Shown here in pieces: positions 19,193 through 58,894 of a stretch of 64,000 nucleotides of DNA. Origin of the DNA: an uncultured Candidatus Saccharibacteria bacterium (GTDB lineage: Bacteria > Patescibacteriota > Minisyncoccia > CAIUEV01 > JAHKAQ01); the NCBI GenBank assembly GCA_964598205.1, contig CAZRBB010000004.1, forward strand, positions 2,324-66,323, written 5' to 3'. Made by a program: the position numbers and the translations under genes. The notes under the pieces were generated by a model that worked only from the letters and a program-made list of their open reading frames with translations, ran no database searches and had not been told where the DNA came from. Each line of letters starts with the position of its first letter. Position 1 is the first letter of the stretch.

Positions 19193-19228
19193 CCTTAATT
19201 TTGAATTACGAATTTTGAATTTCGAAAT

Positions 19229-19382: not shown

Positions 19383-19405
19383 AAATTCAAAATTAATTAA
19401 AAAGA

Positions 19406-20746: not shown

Positions 20747-20775
20747 GGAATAATTATGAATTTTGAGTTTTGAAA

Positions 20776-20934: not shown

Positions 20935-20976
20935 GTCCGGTTTATAAAATTGACTAATAATTTTTAATTCAGAGTA

Positions 20977-21600
20977 GTGGGCGAATCTTTAGAATCAAAA
21001 AACAAAAGAAAGGGGATGTCGTTGGTTGAGGCAATAGTAGCGGTGACGGTTTTTGTAACGGCTTCTTCTTTGGCGGCTTCTTTTATTACTTATGGCTACC
21101 GGAATCATTTAAAAGTTACAGAAGAGGCACTGGCAACGGATCGAGTGAATATAAGTATCCAGAAATTAGCGGAAGAGTTAAGAAAAACACGAACCGGTGA
21201 GAATGCTGGTTTTCCAATTATTACGGCCCAAGAAGATGAGATTGCTTTTTATTCGGATTCTGATAACGATGGCAAAGCGGAAAAAATACGGTATTTTCTT
21301 AGTAATGAAGTGTTTTATCGGGGAGTGACGGAGCCAACTGGAGCGCCACCGGTTTATCTTGTGGCGAATGAAGTGGTAAAAAAAATAACCGATAAAATAG
21401 TTTGGGAAGAAGGCAGTCCTTTATTTAATTACCACGGAATAGATCCTCTGGGTGGCGGTGTTAATGAAGTCTTGAGTTTTCCGGTAGATGTTTCTCGGGT
21501 GCGATTAGTGGAGATTACGCTAAAGACTCCAGTTGGAAAAGAAGAGAAAATAAGAACGGTAAGCACCCAAGTTCTTTTAAGAAATTTAAAAGATTATTAA
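20977..21600 (+). CDS. Prepilin-type pseudopilin, 207 aa
   Basis: ...NKRKG then MSLVEAIVAVTVFV, the prepilin cleavage/methylation motif with E+5. Confidence 0.7.
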   Translation: MGESLESKNKRKGMSLVEAIVAVTVFVTASSLAASFITYGYRNHLKVTEEALATDRVNISIQKLAEELRKTRTGENAGFPIITAQEDEIAFYSDSDNDGKAEKIRYFLSNEVFYRGVTEPTGAPPVYLVANEVVKKITDKIVWEEGSPLFNYHGIDPLGGGVNEVLSFPVDVSRVRLVEITLKTPVGKEEKIRTVSTQVLLRNLKDY

Positions 21601-41994: not shown

Positions 41995-42058
41995 AAATGT
42001 TTTTAGATGGATTTTATAAAATTTTTATATTTAGCTGGTTAAATAACTGTTGTTAACA

Positions 42059-43831
42059 ATGAGTTCCTTAGCAGAAAAAATAATTAGCTTAGCTTGGGAA
42101 AGAAAAATTTCTTCCGAAGAAGAGTTAAAATATCTTAAAAGAGAAGCAGCCAAGGGTGGCAAGGAGAACATTCCTAATAATCGGGAATTGGGTCGTGCCT
42201 ATTCTAAGCTTTTGGCGGAGGGGACTATTTCCCCTGATCCAATACTAGTAGATCTTTTGGTGCTAAAAAGAACTCGCACGCTTTCTGGTGTTTCTGTGGT
42301 AGCGACTTTAACGGCCTCTTATCCCTGTCGTAATCAATGCCTGTATTGTCCAGAAGAAAACAAAATGCCTAAAAGCTATCTTTCTAATGAGCCGGCAGTA
42401 ATGCGAGCAATCAAGCTTGATTTTGATCCTTATCTTCAGGTTCAAAAAAGAATAGGAGCCTTAGAATTAAATGGCCACGATGCTTCTAAGGTGGAGCTGA
42501 TTATTATGGGGGGGACTTTTTCTCATTTGCCAGTGCTTTACCAATATTGGTTTGTTTTGAACTGTTTTTTGGCGGCTAATGCTTTTAGCGGTTCAAAGAA
42601 AAATTCAAAGGTTAGAGCACTTAATTTAGAGGCAAAAAATATTTTGAAAAAATATTTTTTAAGGGCTAAAGAGGAAATGTTTGTTGCAGGAAGGTCGCTG
42701 ACCAAAAACAAGAAAAAGATTAAGCCGAGTTCTAAAATTGCAGAAAAAGAAAAAGACTGTTTTTTAAAAGATGATGGAAAGATTTTGGCAAAAATTAAAA
42801 TGGCTCTTTTGGCGGCTCAAAAAGAAAATCAAATCGCTAAGCACCGAATAGTGGGGCTTACCTTAGAAACCAGACCAGATTCCATAAATTTAAAAGAGCT
42901 AGTTAGATTCAGAAAGCTGGGCTGTACTCGCGTGGAAATAGGAGTGCAGTCGGTATTTACCAGGGTTCTTAAAAAAAATGAACGGGGACATGGTCGGCAA
43001 GAAATTATTAAAGCAACACAGCTTTTAAAAGAATTGGGTTTTAAAATAAACTATCACTTAATGCCTGGTCTTTGGGGATCTTCTTTTAAGTTGGATCAAA
43101 AACTTTTTGGCGAGGTGTTTAGCAATCAAGTTTTTCGGCCGGATATGTTAAAAATTTATCCTTGTGTGGTAGTAGCTGGATCGCCCTTGTTTTCTATTTG
43201 GCAACAAGGTCTTTACCATCCTTATTCTAACGATGAATTATTTCGGCTTTTGGCTTTTGTTAAAAAGAGGATTCCACGCTATGTGCGGATTGCCAGGGTG
43301 ATTAGAGACATTCCTACTGATTCAATTGTGGCTGGTCCCAACATTCCCAATTTAAGGGAAATGCTTAAAAAAAGAGGAGTGGTTTGCCAATGTATTCGTT
43401 GCCGAGAAGCGGGAAGAATTGTTTGGGAAAAATCGGCTCCTGTAAAATTAAAAAGAACTAATTACAAAGCTTCTGGTGGGCAAGAAATATTTTTAGAATT
43501 TTTAACCAAAGAAGCTCTACATGCTTTTTTACGATTAAGAATTCCTGCTTTTATTCTTAAAAAGAAACCAACACCACTCAAAGAGTTAAAAGGAGCGGCA
43601 ATGATTAGAGAAGTTCATTCTTATGGTCAGGTGGCGCCGATTGGAGAAAAAATAAAAGGCACTTCTCAACACCAAGGATTCGGCAAACGGTTAATTAAGG
43701 AAGCCGAAAAAATTGTTAAGGAAGAATACAAATTAAAAAAAATCGCGGTGATTGCCGCGGAAGGAACTAAAGAATATTATTTTTCTTTGGGATTTAAGGA
43801 AGAGGGACTTTATCTAATGAAGGAAATCTAA
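42059..43831 (+). CDS. Elp3-like radical SAM + GNAT enzyme (tRNA wobble-uridine carboxymethyl synthase family)
   Basis: N-terminal CRNQCLYCP (CxxxCxxC). Radical SAM core. C-terminal GNAT motif QHQGFGKRLIKEAEKI. The start is set at the ATG (MSSLAEK). The six-frame ORF begins at a TTG 9 nt upstream at 42050. Confidence 0.75.
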   Translation: MSSLAEKIISLAWERKISSEEELKYLKREAAKGGKENIPNNRELGRAYSKLLAEGTISPDPILVDLLVLKRTRTLSGVSVVATLTASYPCRNQCLYCPEENKMPKSYLSNEPAVMRAIKLDFDPYLQVQKRIGALELNGHDASKVELIIMGGTFSHLPVLYQYWFVLNCFLAANAFSGSKKNSKVRALNLEAKNILKKYFLRAKEEMFVAGRSLTKNKKKIKPSSKIAEKEKDCFLKDDGKILAKIKMALLAAQKENQIAKHRIVGLTLETRPDSINLKELVRFRKLGCTRVEIGVQSVFTRVLKKNERGHGRQEIIKATQLLKELGFKINYHLMPGLWGSSFKLDQKLFGEVFSNQVFRPDMLKIYPCVVVAGSPLFSIWQQGLYHPYSNDELFRLLAFVKKRIPRYVRIARVIRDIPTDSIVAGPNIPNLREMLKKRGVVCQCIRCREAGRIVWEKSAPVKLKRTNYKASGGQEIFLEFLTKEALHAFLRLRIPAFILKKKPTPLKELKGAAMIREVHSYGQVAPIGEKIKGTSQHQGFGKRLIKEAEKIVKEEYKLKKIAVIAAEGTKEYYFSLGFKEEGLYLMKEI

Positions 43832-45309: not shown

Positions 45310-45795
45310 ATGGCTAAAATAAAGGAAAAATCAAAAAGAGGGAAACAAGAAACGGTTTCTCTTTTAAAAATCTTTACCGCCAAGGAGCCGGCTGATTTTT
45401 GTTTGCCGGCGGTTTTTTTGGCCAAGGCCTCTGGGGGCCGAGGATTAATCGCTCTTTACGGCGATCTGGGTAGCGGGAAAACGACCTTGGTGCGTTTTTT
45501 GGGGAAGGAATTAAAAGTGAAAGGTTTGCCAAATAGCCCCACCTTTAATATTTTAAAAACCTATTCTTTTCCTAGGGGAAAGACGCTTTACCATTTAGAT
45601 TTTTATCGCCTAAAAACGCCACAAGAAATTCTAGATCTGGGATTTAAGGAATGGTTTTTAGATAAAAATGGTCTTTTGGTGGTAGAATGGCCGGAGATAT
45701 TAGGAGAACACTTGCCGGCGCCACGATTAGAAGTAAGAATTGATTTTAAAAACGAATCACGAGAAATAAAGATTTTTAGGGTTACTAATTGTTAA
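45310..45795 (+). CDS. tsaE: tRNA threonylcarbamoyladenosine biosynthesis protein TsaE
   Basis: ALYGDLGSGKTTLVRFL and HLDFYRL motifs. 161 aa. Confidence 0.8.
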   Translation: MAKIKEKSKRGKQETVSLLKIFTAKEPADFCLPAVFLAKASGGRGLIALYGDLGSGKTTLVRFLGKELKVKGLPNSPTFNILKTYSFPRGKTLYHLDFYRLKTPQEILDLGFKEWFLDKNGLLVVEWPEILGEHLPAPRLEVRIDFKNESREIKIFRVTNC

Positions 45796-45797
45796 TA

Positions 45798-48704
45798 ATG
45801 GCTAAGGAAAAATTAATTCTAATAGACGGGAATGCTTTAGTGCACCGAGCTTTCCACGCATTACCTCCTTCACTAACCGACAGTCAGGGGCGGATGGTAA
45901 ATGGTGTCTATGGTTTTATTTTGGTTTTTTTGCGGGTGATTTCCGAATTTAAACCTGATTTTGTAGTTGCAACTTTTGATCGCAAAGGAAAAACTTTTCG
46001 ACATCGTCGCTACTCTCTTTATAAAGCGCAAAGAAAAAAGGCTCCCGACGAGCTTTATATGCAGATCCCGTTAGTTAAGGAAGTTTTAAAATCTTTTGGA
46101 ATCCCTATTTATTCCCAAAAAGGTCTAGAAGCGGACGATCTGATTGGTGCCATTGCTAAAGATTTTTCCAAGAAAAAAGACAGGGAAGTGGTGATTGTTA
46201 CTGGAGATTCCGACACTTTGCAATTGGTGAATCCAAAAGTCAAAGTCTTTGCCTTAAGGAAGGGAACTAAGGACACGGTTCTTTACGGCGAAGAAGAAGT
46301 TTTCCAAAAAATGGAACTTACTCCCTCCCAAATTGTTGACTTTAAGGCGTTGGCTGGGGATTCTTCCGACAATATTCCTGGAGCTAAAGGGATTGGCCAA
46401 AAAACAGCGGTTGGTCTTTTGCAACGATTTGGTGATCTAGAAAATATTTACGCTAATTTAGGAGAGCTACCAGTCGCTGTGGCAAAAAAATTAACCGATT
46501 CTAGGGCGGATGTTTTTTTAAGCCAAGAACTGGCAGAAATTAAAACGGATTTTAAAACTGGATTTTTGGTATCGACGGCGCGATTTTTAGGGATAGAGCC
46601 AAGGAAGGCGGAGATTTTAAAAATTTTCAAAGAGTTAGCTTTTTTTTCGCTGATCAAAAGATTGGCGCTAGATGATTCTTTTCCGTCACCAGTCCCAACA
46701 GAAACTCTAATAAAGCCGTTGTTTGAGTTTACGGAAGTAACTTCTTTGAGGGAGAAGGATTTCTTTATTCAAGAACTAAAGAAAGCTGTGGCGGCTGTTT
46801 TTTTGATTTTTCCTAGGCCTTGGTTTTTAAAATCAAAAAAAGATGTTTTTGCTTTTGGCGGGGAGTTTGTTTTTTGGGCGCCGCTAGATTCGGCCTTGGT
46901 TTTTAAAATAAAAAAAGAAGATTTTCTTTCTCTTTTTAGGATTCATAAAAACAAATCATTGATTGGGTTTGAGGTGAAACACGATTTTAAAAAATTAAAA
47001 GGCGCAGATTCAGTCCTTTCGCCTTTAAAGGATGATGTAAAAATTCTTGGTTATTTGGTTCTAGCGGGGCGTGGTGGCGTGGACCTAGCTTCTCTTTGTA
47101 AGGAAAAGAAAATTAGTCTTCCTTTTTGGGAGGCTTCGCTGAATGTTCCTAAAAAACGCCAGGAAACTCTTTTTTCTTTGGTCACAAAAGAAGAAGAAAG
47201 TGAGGCGCTAGAAAAAGAAAATCAGTTAATAGCAGAGACGGTATCGGCAATTAGAATGCTCTATCTTTTATTAAAGGAAGAATTAAAAATAATCACCAAG
47301 GAACAAAAAAAGGAAGGAATTTCGCCAATACCTTATTCAAAAATAAAAAAAGGTTTTTGGGGATTGGATTTGGTTTATAAAAATATTGAAATGCCATTGG
47401 TTAGAGTTTTGGCTAAAATGGAGGAGAGGGGCATTGGGATTGACTTGGAGAAAGCTAAACAATTAGTAAAAGATTATTGTCTTCGGTCAGAAAAAATAAA
47501 ACAAAAGGTTTTTGGTTTGTGTCAAGAAGAATTCAATCTGGATTCTCCCCAACAGCTTTCTTTAATTTTTTATAAAAAGCTTAAATTTTCTACGCAAGGA
47601 ATCAAAAAAGGAAAAAGTGGTTTTTACTCTACCTCGGTAGATGCTTTAGAAATTTTAGCGGAGCGCTATCCGGTGGCTAAAATGGTGAAAAGTTACAGAG
47701 AATTAACCAAACTAATCAATACCTATTTAGAACCTTTGCCGGAGTTGGTGAATCAAAAAACGGGACGAGTGTATGCTGGGTTTAATCAAGAGGTAACAAC
47801 CACCGGTCGGCTTTCTTCTAGCAATCCTAATATTCAAAACATTCCAACACGGACTGCTGCTGGAAAAAAAATTAGAGGAATTTTTAGGGCAGAAGAAGGT
47901 TTTTCCCTTTTTTCTTTTGACTATTCACAGATAGAGTTAAGGCTGGCTGCCCATTATTCAGGGGATAAAACAATGCGACGAGTTTTTTTAGAAAACGGCG
48001 ACATTCACAAAACAACAGCGGCCGAGGTTGGAGGAATTACAGAAGAAAAAGTAACTTCCAAAATGCGGAGCGCTGCCAAAGAATTGAATTTTGGATTAAT
48101 TTACGGGATGGGTAGTTATGGATTTTCTCGGGCGGCGGGGATTTCTCGTTCCGCGGGAAAAGAATTTATTGAACGATATTGGCAAAAATTTCCAGCGGTT
48201 GCTTCTTATTTAGAAGAAGCAAAAAAAGTGGCTCAGAAAAATGGTTTCGTGGAAACTTTGTTTGGGCGTCGTCGGAGTATTCCAGAAACACGCTCCCCAA
48301 ATTGGCAGGTAAGAGCTTCTGCGGAACGAATGGCGGTGAACATGCCATTGCAGGGAACGGCGGCCGATATTTTAAAATTAGCAATGGTGAGGATAGATTG
48401 TTTTTTGGGGGAGAAGGGGTTGGAAGATGAATTTAAAATGTTAGCTTCAGTACACGATGAAATCCTTTTTGAAGTTAAAAAAGGCACCAAAGAAAAAATT
48501 ATTCTAGAGGTTAAAAGAATAATGGAACAAGTGGTGGAGCTGGCCGTTCCGCTAAAGGTAGATGTAAAAAGTGGAGAAAATTGGGAAGAAATGGAGTCTT
48601 GTGTGTGGGCCGGGAGGGATTTGAACCCCCGTAGGCGTAAGCCGGCAGATTTACAGTCTGGCGCGTTTGACCACTCCGCAACCGACCCAACTTTTGGATT
48701 ATAA
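45798..48704 (+). CDS. polA: DNA polymerase I (5'-3' exonuclease + polymerase)
   Basis: N-terminal LILIDGNALVHRAFHALPP. Polymerase motifs RRSAKELNFGLIYGMG and SVHDEILFEV. The start is set at the ATG (MAKEK). The six-frame ORF begins 9 nt upstream at 45789. There is no in-frame stop until 48704, so the last 28 or so codons are antisense to tRNA-Tyr. Confidence 0.9.
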   Translation: MAKEKLILIDGNALVHRAFHALPPSLTDSQGRMVNGVYGFILVFLRVISEFKPDFVVATFDRKGKTFRHRRYSLYKAQRKKAPDELYMQIPLVKEVLKSFGIPIYSQKGLEADDLIGAIAKDFSKKKDREVVIVTGDSDTLQLVNPKVKVFALRKGTKDTVLYGEEEVFQKMELTPSQIVDFKALAGDSSDNIPGAKGIGQKTAVGLLQRFGDLENIYANLGELPVAVAKKLTDSRADVFLSQELAEIKTDFKTGFLVSTARFLGIEPRKAEILKIFKELAFFSLIKRLALDDSFPSPVPTETLIKPLFEFTEVTSLREKDFFIQELKKAVAAVFLIFPRPWFLKSKKDVFAFGGEFVFWAPLDSALVFKIKKEDFLSLFRIHKNKSLIGFEVKHDFKKLKGADSVLSPLKDDVKILGYLVLAGRGGVDLASLCKEKKISLPFWEASLNVPKKRQETLFSLVTKEEESEALEKENQLIAETVSAIRMLYLLLKEELKIITKEQKKEGISPIPYSKIKKGFWGLDLVYKNIEMPLVRVLAKMEERGIGIDLEKAKQLVKDYCLRSEKIKQKVFGLCQEEFNLDSPQQLSLIFYKKLKFSTQGIKKGKSGFYSTSVDALEILAERYPVAKMVKSYRELTKLINTYLEPLPELVNQKTGRVYAGFNQEVTTTGRLSSSNPNIQNIPTRTAAGKKIRGIFRAEEGFSLFSFDYSQIELRLAAHYSGDKTMRRVFLENGDIHKTTAAEVGGITEEKVTSKMRSAAKELNFGLIYGMGSYGFSRAAGISRSAGKEFIERYWQKFPAVASYLEEAKKVAQKNGFVETLFGRRRSIPETRSPNWQVRASAERMAVNMPLQGTAADILKLAMVRIDCFLGEKGLEDEFKMLASVHDEILFEVKKGTKEKIILEVKRIMEQVVELAVPLKVDVKSGENWEEMESCVWAGRDLNPRRRKPADLQSGAFDHSATDPTFGL
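48606..48688 (-). tRNA. tRNA-Tyr (GTA), long variable arm, CCA not encoded
   Basis: GGGTCGGTTGCGGAGTGGTCAAACGCGCCAGACTGTAAATCTGCCGGCTTACGCCTACGGGGGTTCAAATCCCTCCCGGCCCA. Confidence 0.8.
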
Positions 48705-48789: not shown

Positions 48790-49767
48790 ATGATTGTCCC
48801 TTCTTCCTTAAATATCCTAACTACCCAAAAATGTAATGCCAAGTGTAATTTTTGTGAGTTTTCTTGCAAAAAGGAAGGCCCTTTTATAAAGGAAGATCTA
48901 TTTTATAAAATAATTTCCGAAAGCCAAGAGATCGGTGTTGAAAGAATTATTTTTGACGGAGGAGAGTTTCTTTACCATCCGAAGGCAGAAAACATAATCA
49001 GGTTTATGGGAAAGGTGGGGGCCCATGGTTACCTTCTGACCAACGGACTTTTGTTTTCTCGTTATGCAAAGATTCTTTTAGAAAATAATATTAAAGAAGT
49101 TGTTTTTGGTATAGATAGTTTTAATCCAGCAACAAACGATAGAATAAAAGGAGTAAAAGGGATTACTCTAGCGGCTATTAAGGGAATAGAAGAGGCCAGG
49201 AAGCTTGGGTTCAAAGTTGGATTGCACATTGTTCTTTCGGCGCAAAATGTTGCTGATTTTCCCAAGTATTTAGAATTTGCGGCATCAATACAAGCAACGC
49301 CTTTAATGGTTTCTTCGGTAAATTTAACGGGGAGGGGATTGGAAAATGAAAAAGAATTAGCTTTGAGTTCTTTGCAAAAAAGATTTGTTAGGGGTGCTTA
49401 TCGTCATTATTTTCATTATTTTCGGGGAGCTTCCGGTTTTTTTGCTTACAGAAACGATTCACCGCCCCAAGAAACAATGGAACAATATCGGAAATCGGTG
49501 CGAGGGTGTAAATATTTTTCTGGAAATACTCTAGCAGTTGATTGGAACGGATCCGTTCCCTTTTGTGCCATGGAACCAAGCCTGGAGAGCGACAGTAAGT
49601 TCCCCAAATTTTCTATAGAGGAACATGGATTAAAAGGAGCGATTATTCAAAGAGAAAATCTAAAAAAGAAAATGGAACAAAAAATAGAAAAGAAAAAGAA
49701 CGAACGGCTTTTAAATGGAGAGCATAATTGTTATGCTTGCTACGGTTATTTTAAAGAAGGTGTTTAA
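48790..49767 (+). CDS. Radical SAM enzyme with C-terminal SPASM/twitch-type Cys cluster (paralog 1)
   Basis: CNAKCNFC (CxxxCxxC) at residues 15-22. C-terminal CKYFSGNTLAVDWNGSVPFC and CYAC. Confidence 0.8.
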   Translation: MIVPSSLNILTTQKCNAKCNFCEFSCKKEGPFIKEDLFYKIISESQEIGVERIIFDGGEFLYHPKAENIIRFMGKVGAHGYLLTNGLLFSRYAKILLENNIKEVVFGIDSFNPATNDRIKGVKGITLAAIKGIEEARKLGFKVGLHIVLSAQNVADFPKYLEFAASIQATPLMVSSVNLTGRGLENEKELALSSLQKRFVRGAYRHYFHYFRGASGFFAYRNDSPPQETMEQYRKSVRGCKYFSGNTLAVDWNGSVPFCAMEPSLESDSKFPKFSIEEHGLKGAIIQRENLKKKMEQKIEKKKNERLLNGEHNCYACYGYFKEGV

Positions 49768-49778
49768 AAAAGAGATTA

Positions 49779-50759
49779 ATGAAAATCAATTCTTTTTCTG
49801 TTATTTTAACTTATCGTTGCAATTTAAATTGTAGTTATTGTTTGAGAGAGCCGAATAGTCTTTTGGGTGATATTCCTTTTTCTTTTTTAAAATCTTTGAT
49901 TCTTTCTTTTAAAAAGAAAGGTCTCCTAAGTGTTTCTTTAACTGGAGGAGAGGCAACGGTCTATCCTTATTTTTGGGAGCTGATGGATTTTTTAGAAGAT
50001 CAAGGATTGAGGGTTTTTATTGAGTCTAATGGGGTTAACCTGAATCTAAAATTTTTAAAAAGACTGATCAGAAAAATTCCTAAAGAAAAGCTAAGCTTTC
50101 TGATTAGCTTAGATAGTTACAAGGCCAGTGTTCATGATGCTTGTAGAGGGTCGGGGTCTTTTGCTAAAGCGGTGATGGCAATAAAAAACATAAGATCCTT
50201 GGGGATTCCAGCAGCTACCAATATGGTAATTAGCGGTAGCAATCCTCCTAGCTTGATGGATTTTTTTAATTATTTTGATTTTTTAGTTGATCTTGGGGTT
50301 TCTACGAGTCATCTCTCTTTGGTGGTTGACATGGGGAGAGGCAAGAAGGAGTTTAGGAAAATAAATCCTCAAAAGATAGTTCAGATTGGAAAATCGGTTG
50401 TTAGGTTTAGAAACAGATATAAAGATAAAATAAAGATAGAAACCGGCGGTCTAACTTCTTTTATTCCCCAAAAATTAAAAGCAGGAAATGATTACGGATC
50501 TATTATTGAATGCGGAAGGATGAATAATCCCTGTTTTTCTTTTAAAGGGATCCATCCTTGTTTATACCTGGATGACTTTTTTATTTTGGACAATAAAAAT
50601 AATAATTTTGATTTTTTGCGTCAATTTAGGTTTTTAAGGAATTTTCTAATGATTAAAAAAGGCATTAAGAATGCTGCTTGTACTACCTGCGTTGAGTTGT
50701 TTTGTGAATTCAAAAAATCACCCAAGAAGTTTATTGATTTTGAGGTAGACACCGAATAA
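49779..50759 (+). CDS. Radical SAM enzyme with C-terminal SPASM-like Cys cluster (paralog 2)
   Basis: CNLNCSYC at residues 14-21. C-terminal ECGRMNNPCFSFKGIHPC and CTTCVELFC. Confidence 0.8.
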   Translation: MKINSFSVILTYRCNLNCSYCLREPNSLLGDIPFSFLKSLILSFKKKGLLSVSLTGGEATVYPYFWELMDFLEDQGLRVFIESNGVNLNLKFLKRLIRKIPKEKLSFLISLDSYKASVHDACRGSGSFAKAVMAIKNIRSLGIPAATNMVISGSNPPSLMDFFNYFDFLVDLGVSTSHLSLVVDMGRGKKEFRKINPQKIVQIGKSVVRFRNRYKDKIKIETGGLTSFIPQKLKAGNDYGSIIECGRMNNPCFSFKGIHPCLYLDDFFILDNKNNNFDFLRQFRFLRNFLMIKKGIKNAACTTCVELFCEFKKSPKKFIDFEVDTE

Positions 50760-50761
50760 AT

Positions 50762-51925
50762 TTACGGTGGGTTACTTGCAGAAGGTTGGAGGATTCCTTG
50801 GGCATCGCACCAATTGGGGTTTCTGTCCCAAAAATCACGGCAGTAGCAGGAATAAGAGTTGTTGCCTTTTAGGACGCCTTGATTAGCTTGGAGGGCTGGT
50901 TTTCCTTGTGGTCCCCAAACGCTAGCGGATACGGCACCAAAAAGGGCGGGAACATTTGCCATAGCAGCGCAAATATTACCGACCTTGCCTCCTCCTCCAC
51001 AACTATTATTGGAATATCCGGCGCCTGGATCGTAAAGCCGGTAACAAGGATGACAGAATTGTTTAGCAATAACATCTGGATGGTCCCAGTATTTTTGACT
51101 AACAGCAGTGGTGTTCTTCTCCATGCAATGACACATTGATCCTTTAACATTACTGGTGAGATTTCGATAAAGAGTCCAGCACCAATGGGCCCCTTGGCTT
51201 TCATCGGTTCCTGCCCCGTAAAGATTCGACTGGGCGTTGTCTAGGTCACTGTCGTAATAGGCACATTCATTGAGATCGGTATAGCAAGTGGCTGAGCATT
51301 CGGGCCATATTCCTAGCCAGCCACGAATACCACCATTTGGTCCGGTGTCGTCAACTAACCCTGGGCACTCTGCTTTAGGAAAAGTTTTGATGGTTCCGGC
51401 GGTGGCGAGTTTATTGCAAACAATAAATGGTTTAATCACGGAAGAGGTAGAGATGCTATTTACGGTGGCGCCAACCGCTCTGGTTTTAGTGCTGGCATCG
51501 GAAAAATTGTCAGCGATTATTTGCGATCCTTTGGTAAAAATAGCGGTGGCTAAAAGGGGACTGGCGCAGTCGTCGGTTAGGGTAGCCGTTGCTTGGGTTA
51601 GTTGTTTATAGATAAATGTTTCAGCTTGATAATAATCGCAGTAGTAATCTTTAATGTTTTTGGCAAACATTTTATAAAGAGCCGGTCCGGCGGTTGTTGT
51701 GCTACCGTTTTCTAGTGCTGCCTTTCTACCCCACAGAGCACATTCAGCGGCTTCGTCTGCCTTTTGGTAGGCGGTTTCCGAAGAGTCCAAGGATTTAGAG
51801 GTTTTCTTTTTAGAAATGGTTAATTGGCTAATTCCAATAATAGAAATAGTCATTAGGGTGGCAATAATCAAAGCCAAAATAATCATGGCGGCTCCTTTTT
51901 CTTTTTTATTCGTTTTGTTATTCAT
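50762..51925 (-). CDS. Membrane-anchored, extremely Cys-rich extracellular protein heading the minus-strand pilin operon
   Basis: N-terminal hydrophobic anchor KGAAMIILALIIATLMTISIIG, which is pilin-like but has no E+5. More than 20 Cys in the C-terminal 250 aa (CPGLVDD, PECSATCYTDLNECAYY, SMCHCME, FCHPCY, SCGGGG, NICAAM, SYSCYCRDF, NWCDAQG). Confidence 0.55.
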   Translation of the reverse strand: MNNKTNKKEKGAAMIILALIIATLMTISIIGISQLTISKKKTSKSLDSSETAYQKADEAAECALWGRKAALENGSTTTAGPALYKMFAKNIKDYYCDYYQAETFIYKQLTQATATLTDDCASPLLATAIFTKGSQIIADNFSDASTKTRAVGATVNSISTSSVIKPFIVCNKLATAGTIKTFPKAECPGLVDDTGPNGGIRGWLGIWPECSATCYTDLNECAYYDSDLDNAQSNLYGAGTDESQGAHWCWTLYRNLTSNVKGSMCHCMEKNTTAVSQKYWDHPDVIAKQFCHPCYRLYDPGAGYSNNSCGGGGKVGNICAAMANVPALFGAVSASVWGPQGKPALQANQGVLKGNNSYSCYCRDFWDRNPNWCDAQGILQPSASNPP

Positions 51926-51950: not shown

Positions 51951-52460
51951 TTAAGGAATTAAATTGTAGCTTCTTAGGGAAGTGGTCATTTGAAAAGGAA
52001 TGGTGATGTCTTCTGGGGAATCTTTAATAATAATATTAAAGACAATAGTTACTCGATTAAATCCGTCTACTCCCTCAGTATTTACTATTTTAAAATCCGA
52101 AATTTTAAAATTAGGGAAGTAAGATTCAATAGTTGCTTGGTTTAGAGTTATTAGGATTTCGCTATAGGTTTTTCCGTTTTCTTTGCGCCAGTTAAAAATA
52201 ATAGAGCTGGCAGGAACATTTGTAAGTTCGCTCATTCTAATTTGTTTGGAAATTTCCAGAACGGCTGCTTGAGCTTGAGCCTGAGCGGTTTGAATATTTT
52301 TTAACCGCAAAGAAGAAGTAGTAAGTGCGCGAGTAATCGAGGTTAAAGAAATAGCCACAAAAGAAAGAATAGCCACTACTACTAGCATTTCTATTAGGCT
52401 AAAGCCTTTTTGTTTTTCTTGTTTAATTTTTTGTTTTTTAGATTTCATTCGGGTCGCCAA
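51951..52460 (-). CDS. Prepilin-type pseudopilin / minor pilin
   Basis: KQKG then FSLIEMLVVVAILSFV. Confidence 0.7.
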   Translation of the reverse strand: MATRMKSKKQKIKQEKQKGFSLIEMLVVVAILSFVAISLTSITRALTTSSLRLKNIQTAQAQAQAAVLEISKQIRMSELTNVPASSIIFNWRKENGKTYSEILITLNQATIESYFPNFKISDFKIVNTEGVDGFNRVTIVFNIIIKDSPEDITIPFQMTTSLRSYNLIP

Positions 52461-53167
52461 TCATAAAGACATTTAGTAACTCTTACTCGGTGTAATGTTT
52501 TATTATTCTCTAACCATAGTAGATTATCATTAGCATTGCCTGGCCAGCTGTTTTCCCAAAACTCTGACCAGTAGACAGTGACTACCACTAGGGCACCACC
52601 TTGACCGTCTACTACTTCGCAGTTGTAGGTGATATCGAAAGCAGGAGAAGGGCTGACGCCATCTCTGTAAGTGGAAGTAAGGATTTGAATCTTGCGAATA
52701 AATTGGCGGGTGGCAGTGTTAATATTACATATCTGGTAATTTCCGGTTGCAGCAGCGCGACAAAGGCCGGCGCGATTATTATTAAAAGCGTAAGTACCAC
52801 TTCCTATATTGAAATTATTGACATAGGTACTGACGGTGTTATCTAAGGCGTAAGCATTTCTTGCTGGTGGGTTAGTGATGTGGTTAATTTGGTTAAATCC
52901 ATTCAAGGGAGTTACCGAATTTCTTAGACACCAGTTGTCTCCGGTGTCGCGGATGTTTCTAACCAGCTCTACGCCTTCTTGGGCTAAGGCGGCGGCAGTG
53001 ATTTCGTTTTTGGTAACAGAAGAAAGTCGTAAATTTCTAGTAATCAAAACAAGGCCAGTGGTTAGGGAAAGGCTAATAATGGCAATGGCTACCAAAAGTC
53101 CAACAATGGTAAACCCTTGATCTTGGGAATAGCTTTTGATTTTTTTGTGATTCGGTTTTAAGATCAT
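52445..53167 (-). CDS. Prepilin-like minor pilin lacking Glu at +5
   Basis: QDQG then FTIVGLLVAIAIISLS, with G at +5. Cys-containing C-terminal domain. Confidence 0.6.
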   Translation of the reverse strand: MILKPNHKKIKSYSQDQGFTIVGLLVAIAIISLSLTTGLVLITRNLRLSSVTKNEITAAALAQEGVELVRNIRDTGDNWCLRNSVTPLNGFNQINHITNPPARNAYALDNTVSTYVNNFNIGSGTYAFNNNRAGLCRAAATGNYQICNINTATRQFIRKIQILTSTYRDGVSPSPAFDITYNCEVVDGQGGALVVVTVYWSEFWENSWPGNANDNLLWLENNKTLHRVRVTKCLYDWRPE

Positions 53168-53215: not shown

Positions 53216-53713
53216 TTATTGAACATCGATAGAAGTAGTGGTTACATTGATGGTGAAAATGGTATTGGGATCGGCACAGGCATTGTCTCCACAGACTCTA
53301 ATGGCGCAAGGGGCGACACTACGGGTCATTTCGGCATGAGGAGGACTAAAATAGATAGTAGCGTTCTCTAAGAGGATTCCGTCTGTTGCAGGAATGGTTA
53401 CTGTTTTTAGGTTGATAACATTATTATTGGGATTGACTGAGCCAATCTTATAGGTGTTTCCTCCGGTTATAGAAAACACAAAACTCTCAGGAACAACGCT
53501 ACCAGGAGGGACATTTTCCCCGGTTAAGGCGTAATTGCGAGCTTGTTCAATCATATCTTTTATTTGCTGGGCTCTGATTTGAGCTCGTTTTACTCTTGTT
53601 GATTGCTGCCATTTGATTACTCCTCCTGTCACTAAAAGACCAATAATTACCACAACAACCAAGACTTCTATGATTGTAAAGCCATTCTTTGATTTTGTTT
53701 TTTGATTATTCAA
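53216..53713 (-). CDS. Type IV pilin
   Basis: KSKNG then FTIIEVLVVVVIIGLLV. C-terminal disulfide pair CAIRVCGDNACADP. Confidence 0.75.
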   Translation of the reverse strand: MNNQKTKSKNGFTIIEVLVVVVIIGLLVTGGVIKWQQSTRVKRAQIRAQQIKDMIEQARNYALTGENVPPGSVVPESFVFSITGGNTYKIGSVNPNNNVINLKTVTIPATDGILLENATIYFSPPHAEMTRSVAPCAIRVCGDNACADPNTIFTINVTTTSIDVQ

Positions 53714-53796: not shown

Positions 53797-54879
53797 ATGC
53801 TTTCTTCTTTGGGTAGTATAATCAATAGTTCCAAGAATAGTTCTATTGGAATTGATATTGGAACTTCTTCCATTAAAATAGTTCATTTAAGTGGCTCAAC
53901 AGAAAAAGTGGTTTTGGAAAATTTTGTAATTGCTAGGCTTAAAGAAGGCTTGATTCAAAATAGCAATCAGATTATTGCCGGAAAGCAAATTGCTCAAATT
54001 ATTAAAGTGGCAATGGAAAAGGGCGGTATTAAATCGGGAACTATTTCTTTTTCTATTCCTACTTTTTCTTCTTTTTCTTCTTTTATTACTCTTCCGCGAT
54101 CAGATGAAGAAAATTTGGCCAGCAAGGTAGAAATAGAGGCTCGGAAATATATTCCCGTTCCTCTTTCTGAAGTTTCTTTGGGTTGGGAAATAGTTCCCGA
54201 CAACTACAAGCCGCGCTCCATGGAAATAAAATCCCAAGAAAAAATAATAAAAATACTTTTAATGGCAGTTTCTAAGGACATTATTCAAAAATATGAAGCA
54301 ATTGCCAGGAGTGCCGGATTAAACTTGGGTTCCATGGAAGTAGAAACTTTTTCCTTGATTCGTTGCTTAATAGGTCAGGATAAAACGCCTTCCTTGATTA
54401 TAGACATTGGTTCTCGGGTTTCTAATTTAATGATTGTAACAGAAGGATTTTTGCGTGGCAGTAGCAGTATTGATGTTGGCGGAGGAGAGGTGACAGAGGC
54501 TGTTGCCAGGGGAATGGGAGTTGATTTTATTAGAGCAGAAGCCCTAAAAAAAGAATGGGGAGTAGATAATCCACAGGTGGCTGAATTAATAACCCCGGTG
54601 ATTTTAAGAATTGTTCAAGGAATTAAAAAAGCAATAGAATCTTACGAAAAAAATAATCCCAGCAAAAAGATGGAAAAAATAATCTTAATAGGAGGAACAT
54701 CTAAGATGAAGGGCTTTAAAGAGTATTTAAAAAAAGAATTGAATTTAAAAATAGAAGATGGCAATTCATTGAAATTGGTTTCTGTGGAAAAATTAGTAGA
54801 ACCATTGGTGCAAAAATTTAAAGATGAATTAGCAGTAGCAGTGGGGATTGCGCTTTCTGGAATGGAAAACTTGCAATAA
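53797..54879 (+). CDS. pilM: Type IV pilus assembly protein PilM (second copy)
   Basis: SIGIDIGTSSIKIVHL N-terminus. Actin-like fold signatures. 360 aa. Confidence 0.8.
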   Translation: MLSSLGSIINSSKNSSIGIDIGTSSIKIVHLSGSTEKVVLENFVIARLKEGLIQNSNQIIAGKQIAQIIKVAMEKGGIKSGTISFSIPTFSSFSSFITLPRSDEENLASKVEIEARKYIPVPLSEVSLGWEIVPDNYKPRSMEIKSQEKIIKILLMAVSKDIIQKYEAIARSAGLNLGSMEVETFSLIRCLIGQDKTPSLIIDIGSRVSNLMIVTEGFLRGSSSIDVGGGEVTEAVARGMGVDFIRAEALKKEWGVDNPQVAELITPVILRIVQGIKKAIESYEKNNPSKKMEKIILIGGTSKMKGFKEYLKKELNLKIEDGNSLKLVSVEKLVEPLVQKFKDELAVAVGIALSGMENLQ

Positions 54880-54935
54880 AAAGACAGTTCTTATATTATT
54901 CAGTTGTGAGAAGATTTTAGAAAACTAAAATAAAA

Positions 54936-55625
54936 ATGATTAATACTGGTGGCATAAATTTTGCCAAACAGACGGGGATTTATAAAGAAGAGCAAAAAAA
55001 AGAGTTATTTGCCAAGGGATTGGTAATCTCTGTTTTTGTGTTTCTTTTTTTGGGTTTAATTTCTGGCTGGACCTATCTTTCAAAGCAAAGTCAAGAAAAG
55101 AAAATGGTGGCTCTGAATGCTGACTTGGTAAAAGAGAGGCAAAGAGATTATGGGGAATTGGCTGAATTTATGACTGATTCTGTAAAGCTGGACTTTATTG
55201 GTGATTTTTCTTTGAAGCAAAAATTTTGGAGTGGGCTTCTTGGAGAGCTTGAAAAAGGAATTTTAGTTAACTCCTATTTAAAATCATTAAAAGGAACGAC
55301 TTCTTACAATATTAAAGGATTTCTTTCTCAGGCCGTAAGCGATCCGGTGATTGCCGGATCCGCTACTATTCCAACAGTGGGGGCTACAGGAGCTATTCAA
55401 GAAGTAGATAGTCTTGTTCTTACTGTAGTTGCTCCTACGCTGAATGATATTGCAAAACAGATAGTTTCTTTAGAAGAGTCTCCAGCAATAGCTGACCTAA
55501 CAGTTATTTCTCCTTCTTTGTCCGAAGAAGGAGTTTCTTTTGAATTAAAAATTGAGCTTGTGCCTGGAGCGTGGGAAAGATCGTTTTATGCTCAAAAAGA
55601 AAATAGCCTAAATCTTGAACAATGA
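54936..55625 (+). CDS. pilN: PilN-like protein (single TM)
   Basis: TM LVISVFVFLFLGLISGW. Operon position after pilM. Confidence 0.5.
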   Translation: MINTGGINFAKQTGIYKEEQKKELFAKGLVISVFVFLFLGLISGWTYLSKQSQEKKMVALNADLVKERQRDYGELAEFMTDSVKLDFIGDFSLKQKFWSGLLGELEKGILVNSYLKSLKGTTSYNIKGFLSQAVSDPVIAGSATIPTVGATGAIQEVDSLVLTVVAPTLNDIAKQIVSLEESPAIADLTVISPSLSEEGVSFELKIELVPGAWERSFYAQKENSLNLEQ

Positions 55626-56386
55626 TTAAAGCCTTAGCCTTGCCACTTTCTATTATTGTTTCTGCAATTGTTTTTTTCTTTTTTCTTTCTCCTACATATA
55701 AAGAGACTAAACGGATTAAAGAAGTAGAAATTCCATTTTTAGAAGAAAAGATTAAAAAAGAACAAGAAATAACGAAGAATATTAATTCTCTGGGAGAAGA
55801 TTATGCCCTACATAAGGAAGAATTAAAGAGATTGAAATATATTTTACCAGAAAACAAGGATGTAAAGTCTCTTTTGGTCCAGATTGAGGCTCTGCTTTTA
55901 GGAAACGGAATGGCCTATAAGAAAATAGGGATAGAAGATGTTTCCAAGTCTGCTTCTGCCAACCAATTCGTGGCTTCGGGCGTAGTTCCTTTGGCTGGAA
56001 CTTTTTCTGCTCCTTCTCCAGAACCAATAAGTATTTCTTTGGAACTAAAAGGAACATACCTTAATTTTAAAAATTTTATTAAGGAGTTAGAAGTTTTGGA
56101 TCGGATTTGTAATGTAACCTTACTGACTATTGGAAATATTGAAGTTCTTGGTGAAGTTGCTGAAATAAAAGCTCCAAGTGAAGGTGTGTCTATTGCTAAC
56201 AATGTTGTTCCAGATAAGGAGCTTGATATTAAAGTGACTTTGGAGTTTTACAGTCAAAAGCCGATAGCTAAGGAAGAAATTGAACAGGCTTTTAGGTCGG
56301 CACAAGGAGGAGCTTCTAGTCCTGTTACGACTGGATCCGACGGATCAACTCTTTCTCCAGCTACTCCGCCTCCAGCTACCCCGTAA
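55622..56386 (+). CDS. pilO: PilO-like protein (single TM)
   Basis: ATGA overlap with the upstream gene. TM LPLSIIVSAIVFFFFL. Ser/Thr/Pro-rich C-terminus. Confidence 0.5.
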   Translation: MIKALALPLSIIVSAIVFFFFLSPTYKETKRIKEVEIPFLEEKIKKEQEITKNINSLGEDYALHKEELKRLKYILPENKDVKSLLVQIEALLLGNGMAYKKIGIEDVSKSASANQFVASGVVPLAGTFSAPSPEPISISLELKGTYLNFKNFIKELEVLDRICNVTLLTIGNIEVLGEVAEIKAPSEGVSIANNVVPDKELDIKVTLEFYSQKPIAKEEIEQAFRSAQGGASSPVTTGSDGSTLSPATPPPATP

Positions 56387-56425
56387 AGTTTCTATTTTTT
56401 TAATAAAAGTTATTTTTTAAAAAGT

Positions 56426-56773
56426 ATGTTTTCTAAAAAATCAAAATTTCTTCTTATTTTTTCTTTCCTAGCGTTGGTTGGTTCCTTTTATTTTTTTGCT
56501 TTCGATTTTTCTTGGGGAGCGGAAGAAGCTTCTCTGAGCGTTCCTCCAACAGCCGGAGATCCGCTAACTAGCAGTGATCCCTCTGCTCTTAATTCGGTTG
56601 CGGCTGACACTAATTCTTCGGCGTCTTCTAGCCTTAATGTTGGTGGACTTTTAATTCCTTCTACTTTGAATAAAAAAGGAATCGAATTCCTTACTCTATT
56701 AAAGGGCAAGGGAATTTTTCCGATAATATTAGATCCAGGTACGGTGGGTAAAGAGAACATTTTCAAAAAATGA
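56426..56773 (+). CDS. Small secreted protein, unknown (PilP-like position)
   Basis: Signal/TM FLLIFSFLALVGSFYFFAF. Low-complexity Ser-rich region. Confidence 0.4.
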   Translation: MFSKKSKFLLIFSFLALVGSFYFFAFDFSWGAEEASLSVPPTAGDPLTSSDPSALNSVAADTNSSASSSLNVGGLLIPSTLNKKGIEFLTLLKGKGIFPIILDPGTVGKENIFKK

Positions 56774-56788
56774 TAAGGTAGATTTTAT

Positions 56789-58465
56789 ATGGAAAATAAA
56801 GATCTTTTAAGAGAAGAAAAGGTTATTGATTTAATAGGAAAAGAAGTTCCTTATAAAGTTTTAAGTGTTTTGGCTAAGGAAGCGGCAGATAAATACCAAA
56901 TGCTTGTTTTTGAAAAAGGAGAGAAGGTTCTTAAGGTGGCCATGGTTGATCCTGAAAATGTGGAGGCATTAAATGCTCTTCGCTTTATTGCCAATAAGCT
57001 TGGTTCAGAAGTAGAAGTCTTTCGGGTTTCAGAGGATGGATTTGCTTCGGCTTTTGTTGGTTATGATAGGGCGGAGGTGATTGTTCAAAAGGCTCAAACG
57101 GACTACATTAAAAAAGAAAAAGAGATAGAGGCAGAAAAACAGCAACGAGAAAAGATTAAGGAAGATGTTAAAACTATTGGTTCGGCGCCGATTACTAAAA
57201 TTGTAGATGTAATTTTGCAACATGCAGTTTTGGGGGGAGCGAGCGATGTGCATATTGAACCTCAGGAAAACGAATTAAGAGTGCGCTATCGAGTAGATGG
57301 TGATTTATATGAAAGCTTTAAACTTTCACGGGATTTAACGGCGGCGCTGGTTTCGCGGGTTAAAATTATGTCTAATCTAAGAATTGACGAAAAAAGAAAA
57401 CCGCAAGATGGACGCTTGCAAATAGTAATGGAAGGGCGGAAAGATGTAATAGATGTGCGGGTTTCTAGTTTGCCAACGGCGGAAGGAGAAAAGGTAGTGA
57501 TGAGAATCTTAGAAAAGCAAACAGGATTGGATCAATTTAATAATTTAGGATTGATTGGTCGGAATCAAAGAATAATAGAGAAAGGATTAGACGAACCTTA
57601 TGGAATTATTTTAGTGACTGGTCCTACTGGTAGCGGTAAATCTACCACTATTTTTACTTGTTTGCGGAAGATAAATAAGTTGGACACGAATATTGTTACC
57701 TTGGAAGATCCAGTAGAATATAAGGTTCCTGGAGTGAATCATTGTCAAGTTAATCCGGAGATTGGATTTACCTTTGCTTCTGGTCTGCGGTCTATTTTGC
57801 GTCAAGATCCGGATGTGATTATGGTAGGGGAAATTAGAGATAAGGAGACGGCGGAACTAGCGGTTCATGCTGCCCTGACCGGTCATTTAGTTCTTTCTAC
57901 ATTACATACTAACGACGCTTTAGGTGCAATTCCTCGCATGGTGGACATGGGGATTGAACCATTTCTGCTTTCTTCTAGCCTACGAGTGACTGTTGCCCAA
58001 CGATTGGTGCGACGAGTTTGTAATAATTGTAAAAAAGAAGTTAAGCCGTCGGATCGAATAAAACAGTATGTTCTAAATAGTTTAAAACTAGTCCCCCAAG
58101 AAGAGATAAAAGAACGACTGCCTAATTTTGATCCAGATAATTTTTTTGTTTGGCAGGGCATAGGATGTTCTAAATGCAAAAATACAGGAACCAAAGGAAG
58201 AATTGCGATTTATGAAGTAGTGGAATGCGGAACGGAAATGAGAAGGGTGATAGACGACAGCCTAAATGCGTCTTCTTTGGTTAATGAATTTAAAAGACAA
58301 GGAGCTACCTTAATGAGAGAAGATGGGGTTATGAAAGCATTAAATGGAGAAACAACGGTTGAAGCAGTAGAAGAGGCGACCACAGAAGACGATATTAACA
58401 AAGAAGAAGAAGTTGCCGATGAAGAAAAAAGTGTAGAAAAAGTAATGGTGGAAAACGAAACTTAA
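56789..58465 (+). CDS. pilB: Type IV pilus assembly ATPase PilB (second copy)
   Basis: GSPII_N-like N-terminus. Walker A VTGPTGSGKSTTIFTCL. Tetracysteine CNNC...CSKC. Confidence 0.9.
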   Translation: MENKDLLREEKVIDLIGKEVPYKVLSVLAKEAADKYQMLVFEKGEKVLKVAMVDPENVEALNALRFIANKLGSEVEVFRVSEDGFASAFVGYDRAEVIVQKAQTDYIKKEKEIEAEKQQREKIKEDVKTIGSAPITKIVDVILQHAVLGGASDVHIEPQENELRVRYRVDGDLYESFKLSRDLTAALVSRVKIMSNLRIDEKRKPQDGRLQIVMEGRKDVIDVRVSSLPTAEGEKVVMRILEKQTGLDQFNNLGLIGRNQRIIEKGLDEPYGIILVTGPTGSGKSTTIFTCLRKINKLDTNIVTLEDPVEYKVPGVNHCQVNPEIGFTFASGLRSILRQDPDVIMVGEIRDKETAELAVHAALTGHLVLSTLHTNDALGAIPRMVDMGIEPFLLSSSLRVTVAQRLVRRVCNNCKKEVKPSDRIKQYVLNSLKLVPQEEIKERLPNFDPDNFFVWQGIGCSKCKNTGTKGRIAIYEVVECGTEMRRVIDDSLNASSLVNEFKRQGATLMREDGVMKALNGETTVEAVEEATTEDDINKEEEVADEEKSVEKVMVENET

Positions 58466-58477
58466 ATTAAACTTAAA

Positions 58478-58885
58478 ATGCCAATAGAATTAAAAAGAAA
58501 AATCAAGAAGAAAATTTTAATAGTAGAAGATGATCCTTTTATTTCTGATATTTACTCTACCAGTTTAACTGGTCAGGGATTTGAAACGGAATTAGCTTTT
58601 AATGGCGAAGAGGCTTTAGAAAAGCTTAGGAAACAAAAATTTGACTTGATGATTTTGGATGTTCTAATGCCTAAAAAAGATGGCTTTGCTGTTTTAAAAG
58701 AAATACGGTTAAACCCTAGTCTAAAAGTTCCAGTTTTAATGCTGAGCAACCTAAATGGAGAAGAATGTGTTAAGATGGGAATGGAATTAGGGGCGGAGGA
58801 TTTTGTGGTGAAGACTCATTTTACTCCCCAAGAAGTTGTACAAAAAATAAAAGAAATAATAGAAACTAAAGGGTTAAACAATTAA
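58478..58885 (+). CDS. Single-domain response regulator (CheY-like receiver, PilH-like)
   Basis: ILIVEDDPFISD, DLMILDVLMPKKDG and the conserved Lys region. 135 aa. Confidence 0.85.
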   Translation: MPIELKRKIKKKILIVEDDPFISDIYSTSLTGQGFETELAFNGEEALEKLRKQKFDLMILDVLMPKKDGFAVLKEIRLNPSLKVPVLMLSNLNGEECVKMGMELGAEDFVVKTHFTPQEVVQKIKEIIETKGLNN

Positions 58886-58894
58886 TTTTTTAAA

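Follow-up and report, generated by a model that had tools for sequence, protein, structure and literature searches.

Two twitch-type radical SAM enzymes beside a Patescibacteria minor-pilin operon: a possible maturase for exported pilus proteins

Bacteria of the candidate phyla radiation (CPR), or Patescibacteria, depend on type IV pili for host attachment, and the minor pilins at the pilus tip are the likely point of contact. In a stretch of 64,000 nucleotides from contig CAZRBB010000004.1 of an uncultured Candidatus Saccharibacteria bacterium (the window), two genes for radical S-adenosylmethionine (SAM) enzymes, rSAM1 (48790–49767, + strand, 325 aa) and rSAM2 (49779–50759, + strand, 326 aa), adjoin a minor-pilin operon that includes a gene for an unusually Cys-rich protein (50762–51925, − strand, 387 aa). 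What do these two enzymes modify? Comparison with relatives suggests that the pair modifies an exported pilus protein. The genes with their motifs and rarity, the fusion of the two enzyme types in other organisms, the adjacency to the Cys-rich gene kept through rearrangement and the recurring exported neighbours are observations. From the adjacency we infer a relation of enzyme and substrate; the identity of the substrate and every chemical detail proposed below are inferred in the same way. To our knowledge, no pilus protein of any organism is radical SAM-modified, and a literature search on radical SAM enzymes with pilins, minor pilins or Patescibacteria type IV pili found no relevant report. 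What is new here is the association with a pilus and the architecture of the enzymes, fused or paired.

An earlier note on this DNA had placed two adjacent enzymes of about 325 aa just past tRNA-Tyr, which the open reading frames (ORFs) bear out. Its orientation of the neighbouring gene needs correction. The Cys-rich gene was called divergent from the enzymes and the head of the pilin operon. It is convergent with rSAM2, with 2 nt between the two stop codons (window 50757–50764), and it is the last of four genes on the − strand, transcribed from 53713 to 50762 with a GspH-like pilin first.

Is this neighbourhood kept in relatives? The Cys-rich family is small. The search gave eight matches, and members were also found in L001 (one) and in six JGI loci; a genome-contig scan for the family returned only two already known metagenome-assembled genomes (MAGs), and viral contigs scanned with the rSAM1, rSAM2 and Cys-rich families gave no matches. 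The family tree has three clades: clade A (the window, L001 and L012), clade B (L009–L011, from two MAGs) and clade C (including L008 and L019). In L001, whose PilM is 55% identical to that of the window, three pilin genes, the Cys-rich gene and rSAM1 follow each other on one strand; rSAM1 starts within the Cys-rich gene, 11 nt inside its 3' end, and the homologue of rSAM2 is convergent. Both enzyme genes of the window are on the strand opposite to the Cys-rich gene, and rSAM1 differs from its L001 counterpart in both strand and side. Because the order was rearranged and the three genes are nevertheless adjacent in both loci, the trio stayed together through an inversion or reshuffle.

In clade B the corresponding place is taken by a different radical SAM/SPASM gene, convergent with the Cys-rich homologue and 10 nt past it. 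Its product scores 304 bits on TIGR04340 (ACGX) against a cut-off of 400 and has a full SPASM domain (PF13186); the gene is downstream of, and co-directional with, that of a 591-aa secreted Cys-rich protein. According to the model description, the TIGR04340 family is defined by its association with Cys-rich repeat peptides. The likeness to this system is one of position: the L009–L011 enzyme holds the same convergent place after a Cys-rich pilus gene; it is homologous to rSAM1 and rSAM2 only in the superfamily core and, unlike them, has the full SPASM. Beside the L009 pilus locus (11268–21257), the ACGX-like enzyme and the 591-aa protein are accompanied by a PRTase-PQQ beta-propeller protein, a 586-aa protein, an HxsC-like radical SAM enzyme, a 424-aa protein and a Hint-domain protein. 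Altogether, of the six loci whose flanks are readable, three have an adjacent radical SAM gene (two of three in clade A, clade B, and none in clade C). The association of radical SAM enzymes with the Cys-rich gene is not obligate.

The enzymes themselves are rare. An index-based search of 5.8 billion clusters found three real rSAM1 homologues (39–44% identity) and one rSAM2 homologue (35%), and when 1.84 billion representatives were searched exhaustively by HMMER with the rSAM1 profile, only 19 sequences scored at E ≤ 1e-30. The next-best group after the rSAM1 family consisted of 600–680-aa proteins with two radical SAM domains. When scored with the family hidden Markov models (HMMs), P0135 combines in a single chain an rSAM2-type domain of full length (232 bits) and, after it, an rSAM1-type domain (177 bits), and P0143 has the same order (135 and 100 bits). 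The P0135 cluster includes a member annotated as Candidatus Tagabacteria. These Rosetta-stone fusions are direct evidence that rSAM1- and rSAM2-type enzymes work jointly. Other architectures were seen as well: in P0140, P0145, P0146 and P0148 (900–1100 aa) one chain unites three or four such domains, each with CxxxCxxC, and P0138, P0139 and P0141 are two-domain fusions whose N-terminal domain lacks the Cys motif, that is, a pseudo-radical-SAM domain.

The genes next to these enzymes in other organisms were also compared. In L002–L006 the nearest rSAM1 homologue (44% identity) directly follows a gene for a signal-peptide protein of about 129 aa with four Cys, and a further, divergent radical SAM gene flanks it. 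In hhalign, this small secreted protein matched the Cys-rich family with a probability of only 1.4%, and the two share nothing beyond a hydrophobic N-terminus. In Candidatus Tagabacteria (L025–L029) the fused rSAM2-rSAM1 gene is directly followed at its 3' side by a conserved ORF of 80–90 aa, and 3' of the fusion there is also a gene for a membrane-anchored protein of 288 aa that has about 10 Cys. The small ORF (L025 3011–3283, L027/L028 2455–2700, L029 2464–2706) reads ...AGGADA, then CWDP, a Gly/Thr tail and TTTY. In L030, a GC-richer organism, genes for a double rSAM1-type protein, an rSAM2-family protein (30% identity, E 5e-37) and a radical SAM/SPASM protein are followed by one for a GspH-like pilin with four Cys. 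In every one of four different contexts, the nearest neighbour that is not itself a radical SAM gene encodes an exported protein or peptide, and in three contexts the neighbour is pilin-like.

Two further observations concern these contexts. Between strains, the N-terminus and the ACWDP of the Tagabacteria small ORF are identical while the tail varies (SGGG(TTGG)3TTTY, SGGTPGGTTTY, LPGGGGTTTY, SGGTPSGTTTY); the C-terminal Tyr is conserved and is reminiscent of MftA-type precursors. In L030 the genes belong to a dense cluster (1–13575) of five radical SAM/SPASM genes with a glycosyltransferase, a SPASM-only protein and two Ser/Thr kinases, one of them with ankyrin repeats, which ends at the GspH-like pilin.

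Our preferred reading, which we hold as a serious possibility somewhat short of probable, is that rSAM1 and rSAM2 form a new two-part twitch radical SAM maturase for exported proteins that lacks a RiPP recognition element (RRE; RiPP, a peptide made by the ribosome and post-translationally modified) and that here serves the minor-pilin operon. Each enzyme would generate a 5'-deoxyadenosyl radical from SAM at its [4Fe-4S] cluster and would hold one auxiliary Fe-S cluster. The two would act as the halves of one module on a protein destined for export, while it is still in the cytoplasm. The likeliest client would be a product of the minor-pilin operon, in the first place the Cys-rich tip protein at the PilX/GspK position; the PilV-like pilin with its odd Cys is a possible further client. 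The modification would more likely consist of one or a few site-specific events compatible with Sec export, for example hydrogen abstraction leading to a local cross-link, epimerisation or oxidation near a conserved aromatic-Cys motif like GAHWCWT.

A radical SAM enzyme that treats a protein in this manner has a precedent. QhpD modifies QhpC, the gamma subunit of quinohemoprotein amine dehydrogenase, in the cytoplasm prior to export. Its likeness to the window pair is that of a radical SAM enzyme acting on a Cys-containing, non-RiPP protein subunit whose gene is in the same locus (PMC8326336, PMC5682303). QhpD differs in being a single enzyme with an N-terminal extension and a full two-cluster SPASM, whereas the window has two enzymes of about 325 aa with only four conserved C-terminal Cys each; and its client is an enzyme subunit, whereas the candidate client here is a pilus protein. 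The anaerobic sulfatase maturase anSME (TIGR03942; PDB 4K36) differs in having a seven-Cys SPASM, two auxiliary clusters and C/S-x-P-x-R substrates. TIGR03942 is absent among the listed matches of the window pair, homologues reach 52–62 bits against a cut-off of 349, and neither a sulfatase nor a CxPxR motif that would suit an anSME-type reading is present. If our preferred reading is true, radical SAM maturation of proteins, so far known from anSME and QhpD, would extend to surface appendages, pilins would gain a new class of modification, and the pair would represent a new two-component maturase family that functions without an RRE. As the Rosetta-stone fusions occur in an uncharacterised, rare family, its function is directly testable by co-expression.

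A bolder form of this idea, which we think doubtful, is that the tip of the CPR type IV pilus carries an undescribed radical modification. It would be the first radical SAM-matured pilus; the maturase family would have two subunits, sometimes fused, and no RRE, the Sec/prepilin signal would serve as the leader, and the same family would process small exported proteins or peptides in other phyla. The modification could, for instance, cross-link or oxidise the invariant aromatic-Cys site GAHWCWT of the Cys-rich protein at the PilX position, or else WC80 of the PilV-like pilin, which looks unpaired.

What kind of enzymes are they? Both belong to the radical SAM superfamily, with PF04055 scores of 70.1 bits (rSAM1) and 73.0 bits (rSAM2) against a gathering threshold of 29.5. 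The N-terminal CxxxCxxC that had been noticed in each was confirmed at C15, C19 and C22 of rSAM1, where the motif extends to CxxxCxxCxxxC with C26, and at C14, C18 and C21 of rSAM2. They had been described as similar tandem paralogues. Paralogues they are, but not close ones: the identity is 24%, over the core alone, and they are distant paralogues from two separate families.

The C-terminal Cys cluster had been assigned to the SPASM/twitch type. It is no full SPASM domain, and its sequence pattern is twitch-like. The full SPASM is defined by seven Cys (CX9-15GX4C ... CX2CX5CX3C ... C), two auxiliary clusters and an HMM match. Twitch enzymes have a Cys on either side of a beta-hairpin and a downstream CxxC, which give one auxiliary Fe-S cluster. 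In the family alignments four C-terminal Cys are conserved in rSAM1 (C240, C259, C314 and C317, with G254 in the pattern; C26 is also kept) and four in rSAM2 (C245, C261, C301 and C304, with G257 in the pattern); C252 and C309 of rSAM2 are present and not family-conserved, and the rSAM2 family has the motif KG[IF]HPC[LI][YF]. The spacing is twitch-like, C240-x18-C259 with C314xxC317 in rSAM1 and C245-x15-C261 with C301xxC304 in rSAM2. In a 28-sequence alignment with SPASM/twitch proteins, C240, G254, C259 and C314 of rSAM1 fall on nearly invariant SPASM columns. SPASM PF13186 gave no match to either enzyme at E ≤ 0.1, and only the half formed by C...GxxxxC plus CxxC aligns. The four Cys and the alignment to SPASM columns suggest that the C-terminal domain corresponds to SPASM's first half, as in twitch enzymes with a single cluster. 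The AlphaFold2 (AF2) enzyme model has a hairpin at 247–256, with the C-terminus at low confidence. The C-terminal sequence pattern of both enzymes fits a twitch-like domain with a single predicted auxiliary cluster. rSAM1 also has a sub-threshold Fer4_12 match.

The classification does not go much further. A housekeeping classification, which the earlier note had named as refuting, did not result: the pair is no housekeeping family, as no NCBIfam cut-off was approached in the HMM check; the best models were TIGR04317 for rSAM1 (79 bits against 380) and TIGR04251 for rSAM2 (72.6 bits against 400), and no equivalog cut-off was reached by rSAM1, rSAM2, their homologues or the fusions (anSME, MoaA, PqqE, NirJ/Ahb, HxsC, ScmE/F, AlbA, SkfB, W-cofactor maturase). 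The weak matches of the pair are a mixture of maturases and cofactor enzymes. Sequence profiles of PDB entries gave PqqE, BlsE and MoaA for rSAM1, over the core only, and SkfB as the best for rSAM2 (1.5e-18). The top Foldseek match was BlsE (E 5.5e-14, TM 0.62), and viperins and MoaA also ranked high. For this pair neither HMM nor structure classification separates peptide-acting from small-molecule-acting relatives. The assignment goes only to 'SPASM/twitch clade, unassigned'. The superfamily of rSAM1 and rSAM2 is a known one, and so is the mode, maturation of a protein or peptide, yet no described family includes them.

Pairs of side-by-side paralogous radical SAM enzymes that serve one pathway are known, namely HxsB/HxsC, ScmE/ScmF, NirJ1/NirJ2 and AhbC/AhbD. 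The ScmF, HxsC, NirJ and AhbD models match the window enzymes weakly (49–73 bits against cut-offs of 268–650), and none of these pairs is fused in the rSAM2-rSAM1 order or linked to pilins.

The Cys-rich protein would be the likeliest client. It has 18 Cys, fewer than the more than 20 first counted, and its Cys content of 4.65%, against 1.13% for the window ORFs of at least 150 aa, agrees with the description as unusually Cys-rich. The ORF has no Pfam or NCBIfam match. The N-terminal hydrophobic segment (G11-A12...IILALI) resembles that of PilX/GspK and precedes an extracytoplasmic domain. In the family of nine sequences 15 Cys are invariant, as are G11, A12, I15, I16, A18 and L19. The PilX_N and GspK HMMs gave no match to the window protein, and PilX_N matched one of the nine family members at E=0.099. 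The position is that of a PilX/GspK-type protein: the gene is the fourth and last of the operon, and a Gly is followed by a hydrophobic helix without Glu5. Six loci keep this order of minor-pilin genes with the Cys-rich gene last. The AF2 model, built from an 8-sequence alignment, had a pLDDT of 47.8, which is too low for a fold search or for disulfide geometry.

In the motif GAHWCWT of the Cys-rich family, W248 and C249 are invariant. Each of the three proteins whose genes directly adjoin an rSAM1-type gene has a Cys next to a Trp (GAHWCWT, GCWEC and ACWDP). We treat this shared Trp-Cys motif as a post-hoc lead that is suggestive only. Clade C proteins carry variable extra C-terminal domains, for example DUF2341, which fits a tip adhesin. 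In L020 (62–1348, 1407–3035) and L021 (368–2272), both of clade C, a C-terminal module of about 130 aa (LTWPxSxH...YTNQPTYRVEIGI[WY]) sits on both the prepilin-type minor pilin and the Cys-rich tip protein of one locus, and L019 has DUF2341 instead. This distribution looks like domain shuffling at the pilus tip.

Several results weigh against a pilus client for the pair. The Cys counts are even in all nine complete homologues (18, 20, 22, 24, 24, 20, 22, 22 and 22), and the variable Cys come and go two at a time (columns 74+169, 265+308/309 and 348+357). Both features point to a disulfide-bonded extracellular domain, and most of the 18 Cys probably form ordinary disulfides. An MdbA-like oxidoreductase and VKOR, proposed for pilin folding, are reported as enriched in CPR bacteria (bioRxiv 10.1101/335083). 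Taken together with the disulfide signature, this means that the Cys would need no radical SAM enzyme. Moreover, Sec inserts pilins unfolded, which is established knowledge and is also stated in the same preprint (bioRxiv 10.1101/335083), and this limits both the access of a cytoplasmic enzyme and the export of cross-linked products. At the window pair itself there is neither an RRE/PqqD domain nor a leader-like peptide, and the small-molecule enzymes BlsE, viperin and MoaA are structurally almost as near as the peptide maturases. The earlier note would have been refuted by a pair that never co-occurs with the Cys-rich protein; the two do co-occur in L001, yet they are not adjacent in every locus. 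The clade C loci L008 and L019 have no adjacent radical SAM gene and instead a TPP-enzyme/PFOR-beta-like gene downstream; L012, of the window's own clade, has none either, and the C-terminus of another secreted Cys-rich protein is encoded downstream. All conserved Cys are retained in these homologues. Finally, the exact trio is found in two loci only, both in the same clade of the Cys-rich tree, so that inheritance is not fully separable from selection. If the pilus link is not real, what is left is two orphan twitch-type radical SAM enzymes beside a disulfide-rich, adhesin-like minor pilin, which would be of modest interest.

Could the pair instead be an orphan RiPP-type maturase whose client, a small secreted peptide, is encoded in another part of the genome, and whose position beside the pilus operon is incidental? 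A precursor found elsewhere with the same enzymes had been named as an outcome that would count against a pilus client, and the conventional-looking 80–90-aa ORF at the Tagabacteria fusion partly supplies one, which keeps the orphan-precursor reading in play. We nevertheless consider it unlikely. As the earlier note stated, no precursor ORF adjoins the pair in the window; the only ORF in the 101-nt gap 5' of rSAM1 is the 11-codon MEKVLVFVIFN (32 aa if read from a TTG within the tRNA). No homologue of the 90-aa peptide or of the 129-aa L002 protein was detected in the 64-kb window by tblastn, nor of the 288-aa or 591-aa Cys-rich proteins or the L030 pilin. The enzymes also lack an RRE: the RRE/PqqD domain (PF05402) matched neither of them, many distant homologues do carry PF05402, and there is no room for an N-terminal RRE because the radical SAM motif starts at residues 14–15. 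In both respects, domain and adjacent short precursor, the window pair departs from SkfB, SuiB, CteB, PqqE and MftC, which carry or require the RRE/PqqD and act on an adjacent short precursor, and its identity to this group is only 15–19%. In L001, moreover, rSAM1 is translationally coupled to the Cys-rich gene and not to a small ORF.

A second alternative, also improbable in our view, is small-molecule or cofactor chemistry unrelated to the pilus, either by twitch enzymes of the BlsE/MoaA/BtrN type or by a consecutive pair like AhbC/AhbD. BlsE, MoaA and BtrN resemble the window enzymes in length and in the lack of an RRE. They have a single auxiliary cluster, as is predicted for the window enzymes and as twitch enzymes that act on small molecules typically do. 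The top Foldseek matches named above point the same way. Members of the rSAM1 family match TIGR04317 (tungsten-cofactor oxidoreductase maturase) and MoaA first, at 60–85 bits, and half of the Cys-rich loci are without any radical SAM gene. However, these scores are far under the cut-offs (61–68 bits for the MoaA models against 231–325), and the HMM matches to solved structures span the shared core only. The pair has no pathway context: it is not flanked by other biosynthetic genes, its neighbours being PolA, tRNA-Tyr and the pilins. The overlap of rSAM1 with the Cys-rich gene in L001 and the exported nearest neighbour in four different contexts also speak against small-molecule chemistry.

Extensive Cys-derived thioether cross-linking of the sactionine or ranthionine type, which would turn the Cys-rich tip protein into a stapled adhesin, could draw on the Cys content, on the thioether-forming SkfB as rSAM2's best solved relative, on the relation of the L009 neighbour to the ACGX and SbtM Cys-peptide maturases and on an invariant CAYY[DN] motif of the Cys-rich family, which resembles the CX3D acceptor spacing of PapB substrates, but it is very unlikely, since the even counts in nine of nine homologues and the paired gain and loss bear the signature of disulfides and not of the lone thioether donors that the Cys had been taken for, the same Cys are invariant in a clade without an adjacent radical SAM gene, and Sec would not let through a domain of 350 aa that is heavily cross-linked.

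The maturase reading brings the other products of the operon into view. Beyond the Cys-rich gene there are, as had been described, three prepilins with the N_methyl motif (PF07963/TIGR02532, 51951–53713) and then the PilM/PilB/PilT locus. The prepilin-type minor pilin next to the Cys-rich gene (51951–52460, − strand) is 169 aa long from a TTG start (PF07963 9e-09, TIGR02532); gene callers start it at 52448, giving 165 aa, and it has no Cys. The PilV-like prepilin-type pilin (52445–53167, − strand, 240 aa, five Cys) has N_methyl at 2.3e-4 and a weak GspI-like match, and its C80 (DNWC) appears unpaired. Five Cys are found in the mature part of the PilV-like pilin of three lineages with an adjacent radical SAM gene (the window, L001 7562–8275 and L009 8724–9434), one of them being an aromatic-Cys (WC/YC) without an obvious partner; in lineages without the enzymes this aromatic-Cys is absent (L008) or has an extra nearby partner (L019), in a small sample confounded by phylogeny. 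The GspH-like prepilin-type pilin (53216–53713, − strand, 165 aa; N_methyl 7.7e-07, GspH 1.7e-08) has a C-terminal CxxxxCGDxxC loop. Specificity of this loop for loci linked to the radical SAM enzymes was considered and rejected, as a CG(G)DxxC loop occurs in all lineages.

Divergent from the minor-pilin operon are the type IV pilus assembly genes (53797–59965, + strand), whose Pfam matches were precomputed on an identical contig (L014/L015). PilM (53797–54879, + strand; PilM_2) is followed on the same strand by two PilN/PilO-like genes, with a faint PilO match, and a 115-aa ORF, then by a PilB-type ATPase (56789–58465, + strand; MshEN+T2SSE), a response regulator (+ strand; Response_reg) and a PilT-type ATPase (58895–59965, + strand; T2SSE). 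L001 and L008–L011 share this gene order. The locus is the second of its kind in the window, as had been said; the other, separate one is at about 16–25 kb.

No terminator-like hairpin was found between the convergent rSAM2 and Cys-rich genes, so with 2 nt between them the rSAM and pilin-operon transcripts would overlap antisense unless they are terminated within the partner gene. A promoter scan was uninformative, with 21 promoter-like sites where 13 ± 4 were expected. The DNA of the window is AT-rich, with a GC of about 0.32–0.43, and is identical to a stretch of the 198-kb metagenomic contig JGI 3300045131; the nearest relatives of its proteins are from 'Patescibacteria group bacterium' MAGs. 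The window has one more radical SAM gene, a third, 5 kb upstream (42050–43831, 593 aa, Radical_SAM and Radical_SAM_C, ELP3-like); its product is probably an enzyme of the tRNA-modification type with no relation to the pair. The left edge of the locus is formed by tRNA-Tyr (GTA; 48605–48688, − strand; ARAGORN, Rfam RF00005 53.4 bits), and the PolA ORF (45789–48704) runs across it on the other strand. This ORF has no stop at its expected end (...SGENWEEME) and reads through the whole tRNA-Tyr reverse complement (window 48560–48704), which adds about 33 residues (SCVWAGRDLNPRRRKPADLQSGAFDHSATDPTFGL). On identical contigs, PolA is likewise ended at this point by gene callers, giving a protein of 968 aa.

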